DNA from: a bacterium
GTDB taxonomy: Bacteria; UBA8248
Length of the DNA stretch: 64,000 bases
Assembly (NCBI GenBank): GCA_965221165.1
Contig: CBDCRP010000003.1
Coordinates: 480,001 to 544,000, forward strand
Direction: 5' to 3'
Part shown: in pieces, positions 57,775-62,622 of the stretch
Layout: each line of letters starts with the position of its first letter
Position numbering within the stretch: position 1 is the stretch's first letter
Notes under the pieces: generated by a model
Seen by the model: the letters and a program-made list of their open reading frames with translations, nothing else
What the model was told of the DNA's origin: nothing
Database searches by the model: none
Program-made: the position numbers and the translations under genes

Positions 57775-58947
57775 ATGAGCCTGCAAACGGAATCCACGCT
57801 GCAATTCGACCTCGACGAAACGCAAAAGATGCTTCGCCAGACGGTCCGCGAACTCTCGGAGCGCTACATCGCCCCGCGCGCCGCCGACATCGACGAGAAC
57901 GAGGAATACCCCGAAGACATCTACCAACTGCAAAAAGACCACGGCCTGCTCGGCATCTTCTTCCCCGAGGAATACTCAGGCGGCGGGATGGGCTTTCTGG
58001 GCGGCTGCATCGCCATCGAGGAGATCGCGCGCGTCTGCTCGAATTCTCCTCTTTTCATCGTGCTCAACATGCTCTCGAGCCGCGTCATCGACTTGAGCGG
58101 TACGCAGGAGCAGAAAAACCACTACATGACGGGCCTCGCCAAAGGCGAGTTGAGAGGCTCCTACGCCCTTACCGAACCTCACGCGGGCTCAGACGCCGGC
58201 AACATCCGAACGCGCGCCGTCAAGGAGGGCGACGAATGGGTCATTAACGGCACCAAGTGCTTCTGCACGGGGCCCGACAAGGCGGACTTCATCACCGTCG
58301 CCGCCAAGACCGACCCCCACGCGGGAACGCGCGGGATCACCTACTACATCATGCCCACCGACACGCCGGGCTTCAGCATCGCCAAGCACGAGCGCAAGAT
58401 GGGGATGCGGGGCATTGCAACCTGCATGCTGAATCTCGACAACGTGGCCGTCCCGCTCGAGAACCAGGTGGGTGAGTTGAACCAGGGTTTCAAGACCGCG
58501 ATGGTAGGCTTCAATCAGATGCGGCCCGCCATCGGCTCGCGCGCGGTGGGTCTGGCCCAGGGCTGTCTCGACTACGCGGCCAACTACGCCAAGGAGCGCG
58601 AGGCGTTTGGAAAGCCCATCGCCCAGCACCAGGCCGTGCAGTTCATACTCGCCGACATGTTCATGGACATCGAGGCGGCGCGGCTGCTCGTCTACCGCGC
58701 GGCGGCCATGGTGGATGCGGGGCAAATCGGCAAGGAGAACGCCAGGTATTTCTCGACGGCCAAGACCTATGCGGCCGACATGGCGATGAAGTGCGCGATA
58801 GACGGCATCCAGGTCCTGGGCGGGGCGGGCTACATGAAGGACCACCCGCTCGAACGATTCATGCGCGACGCCAAGCAGATCCAGATAGTCGAGGGAACGA
58901 GCCAGATACAGCGGATGATCATCGCCCGGAACCTGCTCGACCTCTAG
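57775..58947 (+). CDS. acyl-CoA dehydrogenase family protein
   Basis: ALTEPHAGSDA, INGTKCFCT, KMGMRG, REAFGKPI..HQ, QVLGGAGY, IVEGTSQIQR. Confidence 0.93.
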   Translation: MSLQTESTLQFDLDETQKMLRQTVRELSERYIAPRAADIDENEEYPEDIYQLQKDHGLLGIFFPEEYSGGGMGFLGGCIAIEEIARVCSNSPLFIVLNMLSSRVIDLSGTQEQKNHYMTGLAKGELRGSYALTEPHAGSDAGNIRTRAVKEGDEWVINGTKCFCTGPDKADFITVAAKTDPHAGTRGITYYIMPTDTPGFSIAKHERKMGMRGIATCMLNLDNVAVPLENQVGELNQGFKTAMVGFNQMRPAIGSRAVGLAQGCLDYAANYAKEREAFGKPIAQHQAVQFILADMFMDIEAARLLVYRAAAMVDAGQIGKENARYFSTAKTYAADMAMKCAIDGIQVLGGAGYMKDHPLERFMRDAKQIQIVEGTSQIQRMIIARNLLDL

Positions 58948-58959
58948 GAGCGCGCGGAG

Positions 58960-60126
58960 GTGACTGGAAAGCCAGGCTCTCAAGGCGCGTTCGAACTTAG
59001 CGAAGCCCAGCGTATGCTGGGCGAGACGGTGTATGAGCTGAGCCGACGCCACATCGCGCCGCGCGCCGCCGAAATCGATGAGAACGACGAATATCCCGAA
59101 GACGTCTTCGAGCTTCTGAAATCACACGACCTGCTCGGCCTCTATGTTCCCGAAGCCTATGGCGGGGCGGGGCTCGGCATCCTGGAAACTTGCGTCGCCA
59201 TCGAGCAGATGGCGCGGTTTTGCTCGAACTCTCCCCTATTCTTCTCCGTCCACCTGCTCGCCACGCGGCCCGTCGCCGGCGGCGGAAGCGAGGCGCAGAA
59301 AAACCGCTATCTTGCCGGCGTCGCCCGGGGCGAGTTGCGGCCCGCCTTCTCGCTCACCGAGCCGCACGCGGGTTCTGACGCCGCGAACATATCGACGAGG
59401 GCGGTCAAGGATGGGGATTCGTGGGTGATCAACGGCCATAAATGCTACTGCACGGGTTCGAGCGTGGCTGATTTCATCACCGTGGCGGCGAAGACGGAAC
59501 CTGATAAGGGGGCGAGGGGCATATCTTTTTTCATCGTTCCCAGGGGCGAGTTCCGCGTGGGCCGCCATGAGCGGAAGATGGGGATGCGGGGCATCCCGAC
59601 GTGTGAGATTTTCCTCGAAAAGGCGCGCGTTCCCTTGGAAAACATGATCGGCGAGCCGGGCCTTGGCTTCAAGACCGCCATGCTCGGCTTCAACCAGGCG
59701 CGGCCCGCCATCGGCGCGCGGGGCGTGGGCCTTGCGCAGGGGTGCCTCGATTACGCATCCGGGTACGCAAAGGAACGCGAGGCTTTTGGAAAACCCATCG
59801 CCCAGCACCAAGCCGTTCAATTCATGCTCGCCGACATGTTCATGGAAACCGAGGCGGCCCGTCTGCTCGTTTACCGCGCCGCCTCGATGGTGGATAATGG
59901 CGACTACCAAAAAGAACATGTGCATTTCATTTGCGCCGCGAAATGCTACGCCACCGACGTGGCCATGAAGGCCGCCGTGGACGGCGTTCAGGTCTTGGGC
60001 GGCGCGGGCTACATGAAAGACCATCCGCTCGAGCGGTTCATGAGAGACGCCAAGCAACTGCAAATCATCGAGGGAACCAACCAGATTCAGCGGATGGTCA
60101 TCGCCCAGAATTTATTAAGTTTATAG
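58960..60126 (+). CDS. acyl-CoA dehydrogenase family protein (paralog of the upstream gene)
   Basis: SLTEPHAGSDA, INGHKCYCT, KMGMRG, IIEGTNQIQR. Confidence 0.93.
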   Translation: MTGKPGSQGAFELSEAQRMLGETVYELSRRHIAPRAAEIDENDEYPEDVFELLKSHDLLGLYVPEAYGGAGLGILETCVAIEQMARFCSNSPLFFSVHLLATRPVAGGGSEAQKNRYLAGVARGELRPAFSLTEPHAGSDAANISTRAVKDGDSWVINGHKCYCTGSSVADFITVAAKTEPDKGARGISFFIVPRGEFRVGRHERKMGMRGIPTCEIFLEKARVPLENMIGEPGLGFKTAMLGFNQARPAIGARGVGLAQGCLDYASGYAKEREAFGKPIAQHQAVQFMLADMFMETEAARLLVYRAASMVDNGDYQKEHVHFICAAKCYATDVAMKAAVDGVQVLGGAGYMKDHPLERFMRDAKQLQIIEGTNQIQRMVIAQNLLSL

Positions 60127-60154: not shown

Positions 60155-60763
60155 ATGAGCCAGATGATTGAAATCGTAAAACCCACCTCCTTCGTTCGCG
60201 CGGGCGACCACCCCCTGGCGGAGCGCCCCGAAGACCTGGGGGGACTCCGAATCGGCTTTTTCCACAACAACAAGCCCAACGCCGACGTTTTGCTGGAGCG
60301 AATCGAGGAGCTTTTCTCCCAACAAGACGAAACGCTGCGCTTTATCCGCTGGGGAAAGCCGAACCCGACCCTGCCGGAGGATCGCCTCGAAGAATTCCGC
60401 GAACAGGTGGACGTGGCCGTCTGCGCGGTGGGCGACTGAGGGAGTTGCACGTCATGGAGTATCCATGACTCGGTGGAGATGGAAAAGGCAGGCGTTCCGA
60501 CGGCCACGTTCTGCTCCAGTGAATTTTCGGCCCTGGGCGCGAACGAGAGAACGGCTTTGGGGATGCCCGGCCTTCCGATAGTCGTCGTGGCGCATCCGGT
60601 GGGGGGAATCGCGCCCGAAAAAGCGCGCGCTCTGGGAGACGGCGCGATGGAGGAGGTGCGGCGCATCCTCACGAGCGATGCCGAATCGCTCCGAAAGGAA
60701 TACCGGGAACGCGAATACGTCCCGCCCCGAAAGACGGTGCGCCACAAGGCGCTCTTCACATAG
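60155..60763 (+). CDS. UGSC-motif selenoprotein (Sec at TGA 60437-60439), 202 aa
   Basis: ORFs 60155-60439 and 60473-60763 are in frame; readthrough gives AVGD-U-GSCTSWSIHD..EMEKAGVPT (UxxC); SECIS-like hairpin follows. Confidence 0.88.
60451..60469 (+). promoter_or_regulatory. bacterial SECIS-like hairpin
   Basis: GTCATGGA-GTA-TCCATGAC: perfect 8-bp stem with apical G, starting 11 nt after the TGA. Confidence 0.75.
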
Positions 60764-60776
60764 GCGGGCCTACAAT

Positions 60777-61853
60777 ATGAACGACCACTCTCAGGAAAAT
60801 CTTGCACTTGAAAGCGAGCGCGTAAAGGTTCGCAACACGCCCGAGGCGCTCGCGCGCCTGCTCGAAGCGCGGGGATGGGGAGACGGCCTGCCCGTCGTCG
60901 CCCCTACGCCCGAGCGCGTCGCCCGAATGGTGGAGGGCGCAGGCCTGGCCCCTGATGCGGAAATCGGCCTCATGCCGCCCCGCCAGGGAGTCATCACCAT
61001 GGAGGCCCTCGCCGTGAACGCCGTGATGGCCGGCTGCCTTCCGGCGTACATGCCCGTTCTGGTGGCCGCGGTCCGGGCGGTGCTGGCGCCCGAGTTCTCG
61101 CTCCACGCGATTCAGGCGACGACCCACCCGGTGGCGCCTCTCATCATCGTGAACGGCCCGGTGGTGGAGGAAATAGGCTTGAACGCCGAATATGGATGCT
61201 TCGCCCCCGGCAACCGGGCGAACGCGACGATAGGCCGCGCGTTGCGCCTGGCGCTTTTGAACATCGGGGGCGCGAGCCCCGGCGTTCTGGATCGCGCCAC
61301 GCAAGGATCCCCTGCGAAATACGCGTTCTGCATCGCCGAGAACGAGGCGGCCTCCCCCTGGGAGCCGCTGCACGTAGAGCGCGGTTTTGCGCCCGAGGAG
61401 AGCGCGGTGACGCTGGTTGGCTGCGAGGGACCCCACAACGTCAACGATCACGTGAGCCACACGGCGGAGGGGATTCTCGCCACCGCCGCCGATACGATGT
61501 CCATCATGGGGAGCAACAATTTCTATCTGCGCGGAGAACCCGTTCTCGCGCTCGGCCCCGAGCACGCGGCGACCATCGCGGGGGACGGCCACACGAAAGC
61601 GGACGTGAAGCGGAGAATCGTCGAACTCGCCCGCAAGCCCGTGCGCCGGCTAAAGCTCGGCGCCATGTGGGGTATGCAGACCTGGGGCGAGGAGATAGCC
61701 AAAAACGAAGGCGATGATGATTTCGAGATTCCGCTTCTCGACGGGCCCCAAGACTTACTCCTCATCGTCACTGGCGGGGCCGGCAAGCACTCGTGCTACC
61801 TGCCCACCTTCGGCCCCACGCGCTCGGTGACCCGGCGGATCGAAAACGGCTGA
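60777..61853 (+). CDS. conserved hypothetical protein, partner of UGSC proteins
   Basis: GDGLPVVAPT, AVNAVMAGC, QATT, NRANATIGRALRL, AENE..SPWEPLHVERGF; starts 13 nt after the UGSC gene. Confidence 0.75.
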   Translation: MNDHSQENLALESERVKVRNTPEALARLLEARGWGDGLPVVAPTPERVARMVEGAGLAPDAEIGLMPPRQGVITMEALAVNAVMAGCLPAYMPVLVAAVRAVLAPEFSLHAIQATTHPVAPLIIVNGPVVEEIGLNAEYGCFAPGNRANATIGRALRLALLNIGGASPGVLDRATQGSPAKYAFCIAENEAASPWEPLHVERGFAPEESAVTLVGCEGPHNVNDHVSHTAEGILATAADTMSIMGSNNFYLRGEPVLALGPEHAATIAGDGHTKADVKRRIVELARKPVRRLKLGAMWGMQTWGEEIAKNEGDDDFEIPLLDGPQDLLLIVTGGAGKHSCYLPTFGPTRSVTRRIENG

Positions 61854-61892
61854 GAACAGAAGGGATTGTAATTCCCTGCCTTTCGTTTTTGC

Positions 61893-62060
61893 TCGTCATT
61901 CCGCAGTGTTTTCATGCGGAATCCAGCGACTTTGCTTTTCGCTTTCGCCTTTCGTGGTCAAACTCGACCGAAGAAGGAGGTATTGTTCCGACTGGAGAGG
62001 AGAAAATACCGCCATGTCGTCCTTCCCATCGGCTCTGGATTCCGGCATGCGCCGGAATGA
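61893..62060. repeat. inverted CGTC-type REP pair enclosing degenerate 30-nt hairpin copies
   Basis: cgtcattccgc...gcggaatccag and tggattccggcatgcgccggaatga (also at 26738); gtcaaactcgaccgaagaagga at 61957. Confidence 0.7.
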
Positions 62061-62220
62061 AGGCGTTCTATGATCAGTGCTTCCCTTATCGGTCGGAGCA
62101 ATCCCTCTCCCGTCGGAACAATCCACCCGTTTGCGTTGCCTCGTGTTCGACCCCGTGCTAGATTTTCGTTTCTAGGAAAGACGAGTATTCTTTTCTGATG
62201 AGATGCGAGAGGGAGAACCC

Positions 62221-62622
62221 ATGGGAAAACAACAAATTAACTCGGAGAAGGTAAAGCCGGTCGGCGCGTATTCCACGGGCTGGAAGGTATCGGACGGGCA
62301 TCTCATCATGCTGGCGGGACAGGTGGCGACCGACCTGGACGGAAACACGGTCGGGGGGGACGACATCAAGGCCCAGGCCCGGCAGGTGTACGAGAACATC
62401 AAAGCCGCGCTCGAGGCGGCGGGAGCGGGGATGGAGGACGTCATCCGCCTGACCGTCTACCTCACCGATCATGCGAATTTTCCGGGCAGCATGGAGGTGC
62501 GGCAAACCTATTTCAACGAACCGTATCCGGCGAGCACGCTTCTGATTGTGAGCGGCCTGGCGAAGTCCGAATGGCTCATCGAAATCGACGCGATCGCCTT
62601 CGTGGAAGACGAGAGCCCATGA
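62221..62622 (+). CDS. RidA/YjgF family protein
   Basis: PVGAYS, LAGQV, QARQVYENI..AL..AG, VYLTD, YPASTL..V.GL....LIEIDA (the position usually Arg in RidA reads Ser). Confidence 0.88.
   Translation: MGKQQINSEKVKPVGAYSTGWKVSDGHLIMLAGQVATDLDGNTVGGDDIKAQARQVYENIKAALEAAGAGMEDVIRLTVYLTDHANFPGSMEVRQTYFNEPYPASTLLIVSGLAKSEWLIEIDAIAFVEDESP

Follow-up and report, generated by a model that had tools for sequence, protein, structure and literature searches.

The UGSC family of selenoproteins, reportedly described computationally by Zhang and Gladyshev, is represented in the 64,000-nucleotide stretch of bacterial DNA analyzed here (the window; GenBank assembly GCA_965221165.1, contig CBDCRP010000003.1, forward-strand positions 480,001 to 544,000, lineage UBA8248) by a gene that lies directly upstream of a member of a large, unannotated protein family, which we call the partner. 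In bacteria, the established route to selenocysteine (Sec) is the reading of a UGA codon by way of SelB and a hairpin in the mRNA, the selenocysteine insertion sequence (SECIS) element. The SECIS element of Escherichia coli fdhF has a bulged base, and the window hairpin has none. Selenoprotein B of the Prd system, D-proline reductase, and of the Grd systems, the glycine/sarcosine/betaine reductases, is covered by the models TIGR01917, TIGR01918, TIGR04483, and PF07355. These proteins (PrdB and GrdB/F/H), the other described ones with which we compare this locus, work with a second, substrate-handling subunit that is encoded nearby.

In the excerpts of the literature on which we draw throughout, UGSC is a computationally defined selenoprotein family (PMC1976440, PMC2398784, the family table of PMC9312934, and PMC13188914), as the initial annotation of the window had stated, and its function is given as unknown or uncharacterized (PMC1976440, which lists the "UGSC-containing protein" among selenoproteins of unknown function, and PMC13188914). 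An ocean survey described UGSC as a major selenoprotein family, with 255 Sec forms and 21 cysteine (Cys) homologs, and placed it among the commonest selenoproteins of aquatic metagenomes (PMC2398784). The same survey proposed a "likely Trx-like fold" and recorded, in the legend of its Figure S1, the fusion of UGSC in aquatic organisms to a conserved domain of unknown function named Unknown_1. A survey from 2016 counted 33 UGSC genes in 26 organisms (PMC5029168), and a review from 2026 gives the NCBI model NF041046 and describes the functions of such families as largely uncharacterized (PMC13188914).

Under translation table 11, the frame of the window gene is split into two short open reading frames (ORFs), one of 94 amino acids (60155-60439) closed by the TGA at 60437-60439 and one of 96 amino acids (60473-60763) that begins with GTG. 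The two starts lie 318 nucleotides (nt) apart, so both ORFs occupy one frame, and when TGA is translated as U the result is a single 202-residue product with one read-through, at U95. GGAG stands 7 nt upstream of its ATG. Around the codon the DNA reads ggc gac TGA ggg agt tgc acg tca tgg, which encodes VGD-U-G-S-C-TSWSIHD with D-U-G-S-C as residues 94-98; that the TGA is in frame with both ORFs and opens a UxxC motif, as proposed at the outset, is borne out by the sequence, the ORF list, and the read-through translation. The joined protein matches PF24696, "UGSC family," with an E value of 3.2e-47 (161.3 bits against a cut-off of 25) over residues 6-173, and this match spans the TGA. It also matches NF041046, "UGSC family (seleno)protein," with 142 bits against a cut-off of 125, which settles its membership in the family.

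Because curated Pfam and NCBI models already cover the family, the gene encodes a further member of a known selenoprotein family rather than a new kind of selenoprotein. Like that family, it passes both cut-offs, carries the U-G-S-C motif, and has Cys-type relatives, and nothing separates the window protein from other members. The initial annotation had called the selenoprotein hidden; this is accurate in that plain ORF callers miss it, but the family itself already has a curated NCBI model. From the sequence evidence assembled here, we are very nearly certain that positions 60155-60763 form one gene for a Sec-containing UGSC protein, and the annotation of the window should be corrected from two short ORFs to a single selenoprotein gene of a catalogued family. 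The full explanation that we favor, in which one 202-residue UGSC selenoprotein receives Sec at the UGA and serves as a redox subunit with the adjacent partner, is in our judgment highly probable.

Conservation of the codon carries much of this argument. The window genome holds seven UGSC paralogs (PF24696 matches), each with one in-frame TGA in the same motif, which reads D/G-U-G-S-C in six of them and H-U-G-S-S in the seventh. Seven paralogs in one 3.7-Mb genome add to what is recorded of the family, for which the 2016 survey counted 33 genes over 26 organisms (PMC5029168), and so does the occurrence of a U-G-S-S form. Among 41 genomes sampled, which comprise relatives and the window genome, 27 have PF24696 matches, and all 22 other genomes of the genus carry between three and nine each; exactly one TGA occurs in every one of the matches listed from these 27 genomes, at least 150 in number, with 34 further matches outside that listing. 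Reaching beyond the relatives, 72 UGSC matches were found at 80 partner loci of other phyla, and these comprise 63 Sec-type genes, five Cys-type genes, one gene with neither residue, and three genes cut by the end of a contig or locus. The Sec-type majority of 63 to 5 resembles the 255 to 21 of the ocean survey (PMC2398784). Loci of the Cys type include L088, L118 (Parapusillimonas granuli), L119, and L046 (Natrialba asiatica), and L103 (Robertmurraya sp.) is of the Sec type.

At the protein level, the position behaves as a Sec/Cys site. A search for proteins of near length returned 10 homologs, and nine of these were aligned, the 120-residue fragment P0126 being left out. All nine full-length homologs have Cys in the column of U95, inside an invariant D-C-x-S-C, so the proposed check that homologs should align Cys to the TGA came out in favor of recoding. 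Residues 95 (C), 97 (S), and 98 (C) are invariant in the 10-sequence alignment of these homologs with the window protein. When the UGSC profile was run against a 50% cluster library, it matched 6102 representatives at an E value of ≤1e-3, 2104 at ≤1e-10, and 215 at ≤1e-30; a motif search of the best 150 representatives found C-G-x-x at the site in 128, the pattern unmatched in 14, and another residue in 8.

The H-U-G-S-S paralog, in which Ser replaces the second Cys, lies on the minus strand at L037:7929-8531 (G000:C3:1612033-1612539). The U-G-S-S variant also occurs at loci L099 and L109, whose partners are the closest relatives of the partner of the window-genome variant, and a UGSC form without the resolving Cys may function differently.

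Every component needed for bacterial Sec insertion was found in the window genome. Profile searches recovered selA (564.2 bits) 1 kb upstream of selB (383.8 bits), selD (329.8 bits; minus strand, G000:C2:975065-976027, locus L001), and tRNA-Sec (75.9 bits), each above its curated cut-off, and ARAGORN calls a tRNA-SeC with anticodon TCA. The search for selA, selB, selD, and a tRNA-Sec(UCA) had been suggested with the initial annotation as a check on recoding, and all four are there. Two other genes of the genome have in-frame TGA codons of their own. The selD gene itself carries one and probably also encodes a selenoprotein. A gene for methylated-DNA-protein-cysteine methyltransferase (L035:4132-4728, minus strand), which lies on contig C3 at about 3.3 kb from UGSC paralog 4, has a TGA at its active site and reads P-U-H-R instead of PCHR, a known selenoprotein family according to the excerpt of PMC1976440.

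The candidate signal for recoding is a hairpin, GUCAUGGA/GUA/UCCAUGAC, with eight perfect pairs and a 3-nt loop that begins with G. Its first base lies 11 nt past the TGA (the gap is 60440-60450) and the distance from UGA to loop is 19 nt, in agreement with the perfect 8-bp hairpin and G-containing loop that had been described from the sequence. The consensus bacterial SECIS, as given in a figure legend (Fig. 2) of the review, has a loop of 3-9 nt with G within its first two positions, mostly followed by G or U, an upper stem of 4-16 bp, a UGA-to-loop distance of 16-37 nt, and a minimum free energy of -7.5 kcal/mol or lower (PMC13188914). With its 3-nt GUA loop, 8-bp stem, 19-nt spacing, and -9.7 kcal/mol when folded alone (z of -3.97, with 1 of 200 shuffles as good), the window hairpin falls inside this model on all four counts, and judged by this consensus the bacterial SECIS geometry claimed for it earlier stands; its loop is at the minimum size of the bSECISearch model.

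Comparison across genes adds a second kind of evidence. We took 45 nt from the UGA onward, ungapped, in 70 Sec-type genes, made up of the window gene, its six paralogs, and the 63 genes of other phyla. Over the positions of the window stem, 89.1% of 560 cells pair, compared with 80.6 ± 0.8 in column shuffles (none of 500 reach the observed value), and when the 3' partner column is slid by one to three positions, pairing drops to 17-49%. Cells changed on both sides number 38, against 16.0 ± 2.5 in shuffles, again with none of 500 reaching the observed count. At pair 21-27, 39 genes have G-C and 28 have C-G. The swap alters codons, from TGG..ATC/GTC to TGC..GTG, and turns the peptide W-S-I/V into C-S-V; pairing in the RNA is thus preserved at the expense of amino acids. 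The loop behaves similarly, with G at position 1 in 67 of the 70 genes and U at position 2 in 66, and this GU is kept through distinct codons (AGT in 51 genes, TGT in 14, and GGT in 1). The loop codon is TGC in all five Cys-type genes, and three of these five have no visible stem.

Some results on the hairpin weigh on the other side. Folded in context, the window sequence is unremarkable, with a z of -1.45 for 71 nt (22 of 200 shuffles as good) and -1.39 for 45 nt (19 of 200), so the case for a hairpin beyond chance rests on the 70-gene comparison and not on the window sequence alone. Five of the eight stem pairs have changed on both sides, a number equalled by 46 of 500 shuffles. An Rfam scan of 60300-60600 returned no family, only two chance-level matches (E values of 1.5 and 5.1). 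Two further circumstances can inflate covariation counts, the position of the hairpin within conserved coding sequence and the kinship among the 70 genes, and related sequences may beat shuffles even without structure. Weighing both sides, we conclude from the comparative alignment that the hairpin is a bacterial SECIS element, as far as sequence can indicate, and one kept with compensatory changes in the 70 Sec-type genes.

Were the TGA a true stop, the locus would be a pseudogene, or else a Cys-type UGSC gene interrupted by a recent nonsense mutation or by an error of sequencing. Table 11 does split the frame into ORFs of 94 and 96 amino acids, and Cys-type relatives do exist, but the same TGA recurs in seven of seven paralogs, in all of the at least 150 listed matches of the sampled relatives, and in 63 genes of other phyla, and the match to the family profile is strong both before and after it. 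Contigs from RNA libraries, derived from relatives, add weak evidence, as none of their listed differences falls at the codon. Conservation across paralogs, relatives, and phyla contradicts a true stop, to which we assign next to no probability. Nor is it easy to credit a split protein without selenium, in which translation stops at the UGA, a second half starts at the in-frame GTG 11 codons farther on (60473), and the two halves assemble. Such a product would be without U95 and C98, although no other redox residues are invariant in the family, and it would break the predicted helix 96-111; the loss of the conserved GU-loop hairpin in five of five Cys-type genes points to an RNA signal tied to the UGA, and the genome has the complete Sec machinery, all of which makes this arrangement extremely improbable.

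Leaky read-through of UGA is known in bacteria, and a standard amino acid, placed by a near-cognate tRNA for Trp or Cys, could in principle occupy position 95 instead of Sec. The genome, however, has selA, selB, selD, and a tRNA-Sec with anticodon UCA, a hairpin of the SelB-type SECIS model stands at the expected distance, and relatives have Cys there, the residue that usually corresponds to Sec, leaving this explanation with a very slight chance of being right. The remaining alternative concerns the hairpin, which might be a mere by-product of the conserved peptide TSWSIHD while Sec is inserted by way of another signal. The whole stem does lie inside a conserved coding stretch, and when folded in context the window sequence by itself falls short of significance. 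What speaks against a by-product is that paired columns covary despite amino acid change (39 G-C genes and 28 C-G genes), that the loop codon ends in T in 66 of 70 Sec-type genes through three codons and in C in five of five Cys-type genes, and that three of the five Cys-type genes have no stem at all in their sequence; we consider it very improbable.

Immediately downstream, and on the same strand, lies the partner gene (Table 1). Its product matches nothing in Pfam or NCBIfam, not even at an E value of ≤10. Four partner copies gave nothing in Pfam at ≤0.1 (one chance-level match had an E value of 0.22), and among 35 partner proteins the NCBIfam matches were to three unrelated families, one member each (E values of 0.044-0.16). 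The family is very large, with at least 7997 clusters at an E value of ≤1e-3 among 8000 candidates scored; the 120 relatives listed have no Pfam domain, and their sole name is "hypothetical protein." In the partner alignment, 26 columns are invariant and 51 nearly so, including those of DGLP, NAVMAGC (with Cys87), RANATIGRA, and C-x-x-ENE, a pattern that would be expected of an enzyme.

A structural model of the partner built from 35 sequences is well supported internally (predicted local distance difference test [pLDDT] of 88.6 and predicted template modeling score of 0.90). Foldseek found nothing for it at an E value of ≤1e-3, the best match being a class I fumarate hydratase (2.7e-3, with template modeling [TM] scores of 0.24-0.28), and a wide VIA search reached a Z score of 5.7 at best, with none at ≥8. 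A search of PDB with the sequence profile gave no relative (best E value of 0.086), and look-alikes in the Atlas were only unnamed clusters of the partner's own family. Judged by its model, then, the partner appears to have no clear known structural relative, which does not in itself make its fold new.

The association between UGSC and this family extends far beyond the window. By tblastn, the window genome has 13 partner copies, and a partner stands directly beside six of the seven UGSC paralogs; near the seventh, paralog 4, there are four tandem copies about 2.6 kb away (L035:11134-15470, minus strand). When species-representative genomes were scanned with an alignment of the partner, 590 stretches matched, 585 of them confirmed partner relatives, and the best 80 were kept. 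These 80 loci come from Acidimicrobiales, Alpha-, Beta-, and Gammaproteobacteria, Dehalococcoidia, Rokubacteria, Methylomirabilota, Binatia, Poribacteria, Acidobacteriota, a Bacillaceae isolate, and the haloarchaeon Natrialba asiatica. A same-strand UGSC gene is present at 67 of the 80, and 66 of the 72 UGSC matches are separated from the partner by less than 400 nt, 40 of them upstream and 26 downstream.

In some organisms the two are a single protein. The 451-residue protein P0133 joins the post-UGA half of a UGSC protein in frame to a partner domain, and P0138, with 549 residues, is another natural fusion. Twenty of the best 150 UGSC representatives are at least 350 residues long, and all 20 have a partner domain after the UGSC domain, with E values of 1e-31 to 2e-147. 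Among the five longest partner ORFs at the loci, three are fused to UGSC, in both orders, and two match no family; a fusion to thioredoxin was seen in none of these five. Pairwise distances among 64 UGSC proteins correlate with those among their neighboring partners (r = 0.847, a value not reached in 2000 permutations), and in three of six window-genome pairs compared, the window pair not among the three, the nearest UGSC protein and the nearest partner come from one foreign locus. This co-divergence suggests that UGSC-partner pairs travel and diverge as units, and no more than that, as shared ancestry adds to r.

The pairing has exceptions that weaken it. An oppositely oriented molybdenum-hydroxylase gene separates UGSC paralog 4 from its partners, partner copies in the window genome outnumber UGSC genes 13 to 7, and 13 of the 80 partner loci have no UGSC gene within 4 kb; the partner can also stand alone. 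With these exceptions counted, we still think it likely that UGSC works together with the partner, and gene order and natural fusions suggest that the two may bind each other physically.

The fusions recall Unknown_1, the conserved domain fused to UGSC in the ocean survey, and Unknown_1 may well be the partner family (PMC2398784, excerpt). Unlike in that record, the partner is here also encoded by a separate, adjacent gene, and this is so across many phyla, with a haloarchaeon and a Bacillaceae isolate among the carriers. In the excerpts of the UGSC selenoprotein literature, nothing on the pairing appears beyond the fusion note of 2008 (PMC2398784). Near-constant adjacency and natural fusions with one unannotated family give UGSC a concrete pair to study.

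Several partner loci show features of their own. At L087, three partner genes stand in tandem, with no UGSC gene within 4 kb. Four Poribacteria loci (L097, L101, L107, and L116) have a partner without a nearby UGSC gene, and in all four the profile match is split in two near the C terminus, which may reflect a divergent subfamily or an interruption. A further partner subfamily has a short, Cys-rich tail, C-x-x-G-x-C-x-L (L118:3977-5074, L119:3920-5035, L095, and L032:8564-9655 on the minus strand), and pairs with a UGSC subfamily that reads U/C-G-S-C-T-S-x-C.

For UGSC itself, a model built from 16 sequences (pLDDT of 87.2) predicts a parallel alpha/beta sandwich whose five strands alternate with helices, and it places U95 between the strand of residues 87-93 and the helix of residues 96-111. 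In Foldseek it matches azoreductases, flavodoxins, lumazine synthase, and GTPase domains, with TM scores of 0.35-0.49, and a VIA search gave Z scores of up to 10.7 with Rossmann-like, binding-protein-like, and short-chain dehydrogenase/reductase-like chains. No thioredoxin is among the Foldseek or VIA matches listed for this model, which is itself a prediction. We read the model as a doubly wound alpha/beta fold of a generic kind, Rossmann- or flavodoxin-like, which would differ from the "likely Trx-like fold" put forward in PMC2398784 (excerpt).

Selenoprotein B of the Grd and Prd systems invites comparison, and 16 UGSC proteins did give weak matches to its models: TIGR01917 in nine proteins (best E value of 9.9e-5), TIGR01918 in five, GrdF in four, GrdH in three, and PrdB in three. 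These matches fall around the Sec region. Membership is contradicted by the scores, which are far below the cut-offs (15.2 bits against 602.2 for TIGR01917 and 10.8 against 65.45 for TIGR01918), and by profile-profile comparison of UGSC with GRDB-family proteins of the genome and of the class, which is not significant (probabilities of 0.5% and 0.3%). On these two grounds we rejected UGSC as a member of the Grd/Prd selenoprotein B family. PF07355 is not among the Pfam matches of the 16 UGSC proteins at an E value of ≤1, and a sequence search of PDB found no GRDB-family relative. Two short local alignments between UGSC and GRDB are co-linear, at an offset of about 214-218, and we take them as a hint only.

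Similarity of action is a separate matter. Like PrdB, UGSC has Sec in a UxxC-type motif (PrdB is given as UxxC in the excerpt of PMC2398784). Unlike in the Prd and Grd systems, nothing points to a pyruvoyl group in the UGSC partner: a pyruvoyl subunit of the GrdE/PrdA type was not found beside UGSC, the partner having no match to Pfam or NCBIfam models, those of GrdE/PrdA included. The resemblance, at the level of a lead, would thus concern a possible mode of action and not family membership. The window genome has five PF07355 (GRDB-family) genes of its own, none with an in-frame stop (G000:C3:1621822-1622859, C3:1442458-1443492, C3:1907398-1907790, C2:1211493-1211897, and C2:1459391-1459696). 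Two are full length, with Cys in S/V-T-C-G-N, and three are short and without Cys there; the five products are glycine/proline-reductase-B-like proteins without selenium.

A working model can be drawn from these elements. On reaching the UGA, the ribosome would meet a hairpin that recruits SelB with Sec-tRNA(Sec), Sec would be inserted, and translation would continue to the TAG. In the predicted structure, Sec95 and Cys98, at the end of strand 3 and in the first turn of the next helix, would form a redox pair. This is a usual site for a U/CxxC pair, which we infer to cycle between selenol/thiol and selenenylsulfide. UGSC would then be the redox subunit of a two-part enzyme, with the adjacent 358-residue partner as the other part, and the two probably form one selenium-dependent redox enzyme. 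By a weak analogy with Prd and Grd, the partner would supply the substrate site, where a substrate would be attacked or reduced by the selenol, and an external dithiol or a thioredoxin system would re-reduce the Se-S bond; that the chemistry is reductive in the Prd/Grd manner is doubtful, the analogy being its source.

The most detailed proposal, to which we give somewhat less than an even chance, makes UGSC and the partner two subunits, fused in some organisms, of an undescribed selenium-dependent oxidoreductase, with UGSC a distant cousin of the Sec domain of Prd/Grd protein B and the seven loci substrate-specific for organic-acid or acyl-CoA clusters. The scientific potential of the locus lies in the pairing with an unannotated, enzyme-like family and in the unusual number of UGSC-partner loci in this genome. 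Each of the seven UGSC genes has a partner beside or near it, and their catabolic neighborhoods differ, which offers hints toward substrates.

Table 1. Coordinates of the UGSC gene, its recoding elements, and neighboring features in the window
Feature	Position	Strand	Remarks
UGSC-family selenoprotein gene	60155..60763	+	202 codons including Sec95; stop TAG 60761-60763
UGA assigned to selenocysteine, U95 in D-U-G-S-C	60437..60439	+	Read-through translation, Cys homologs, paralogs
Predicted bacterial SECIS hairpin	60451..60469	+	8-bp stem, GUA loop; fit to criteria and 70-gene comparison
Partner gene, 358 aa, large unannotated family	60777..61853	+	Begins 13 nt past UGSC stop codon
Two tandem acyl-CoA dehydrogenase genes	57775..60126 (57775-57947 region through 58947; 58960-60126)	+	Acyl-CoA_dh_N/M/1, E values of 1e-25 to 1e-48
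RidA/L-PSP family gene	62203-62622	+	Follows UGSC-partner pair

Around the window pair, the second acyl-CoA dehydrogenase gene ends 28 nt before the UGSC start, and the acyl-CoA dehydrogenase genes are possibly in the same operon as UGSC. On the other side, a 349-nt gap (61854-62202) with small ORFs only separates the partner from the RidA gene. Neighbors were counted over 87 loci with a crude longest-ORF caller, which also produces antisense shadow ORFs. The families found most often beside UGSC-partner pairs were CoA-transferase III and TctC receptor (10 loci each), short-chain dehydrogenase (8), enoyl-CoA hydratase, luciferase-like monooxygenase, and peptide-type ABC ATPase (7 each), and family-5 binding protein and acyl-CoA dehydrogenase (6 each, the window counted); PrpD, thioredoxin-reductase-like flavoprotein, DUF6282, molybdenum hydroxylase, and thiamine pyrophosphate enzymes were found at four loci each. 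Loosely, these neighbors point to organic-acid or acyl-CoA catabolism but to no single substrate. Clustering of the ORFs found no third gene constant around the pair, the commonest neighbor families reaching 10 of 87 loci, which detracts from a substrate-based reading and leaves the guess at a substrate soft.

Four metatranscriptome libraries from two studies yielded contigs, 90-99% alike to the window sequence, that cover 60328-60713 across the UGA and hairpin, and no change at either is among the differences listed. They lend weak support to transcription of such UGSC genes and to nothing further, as the contigs come from relatives and DNA may be present in RNA libraries. Contigs at a depth of 45-59 from runs X21 and X22 join the window sequence only from 60446 onward. 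Upstream of that point their sequence is different, again with TGA and then GGG TCC, and they probably stem from a different UGSC gene, one carried by a related organism in those samples.

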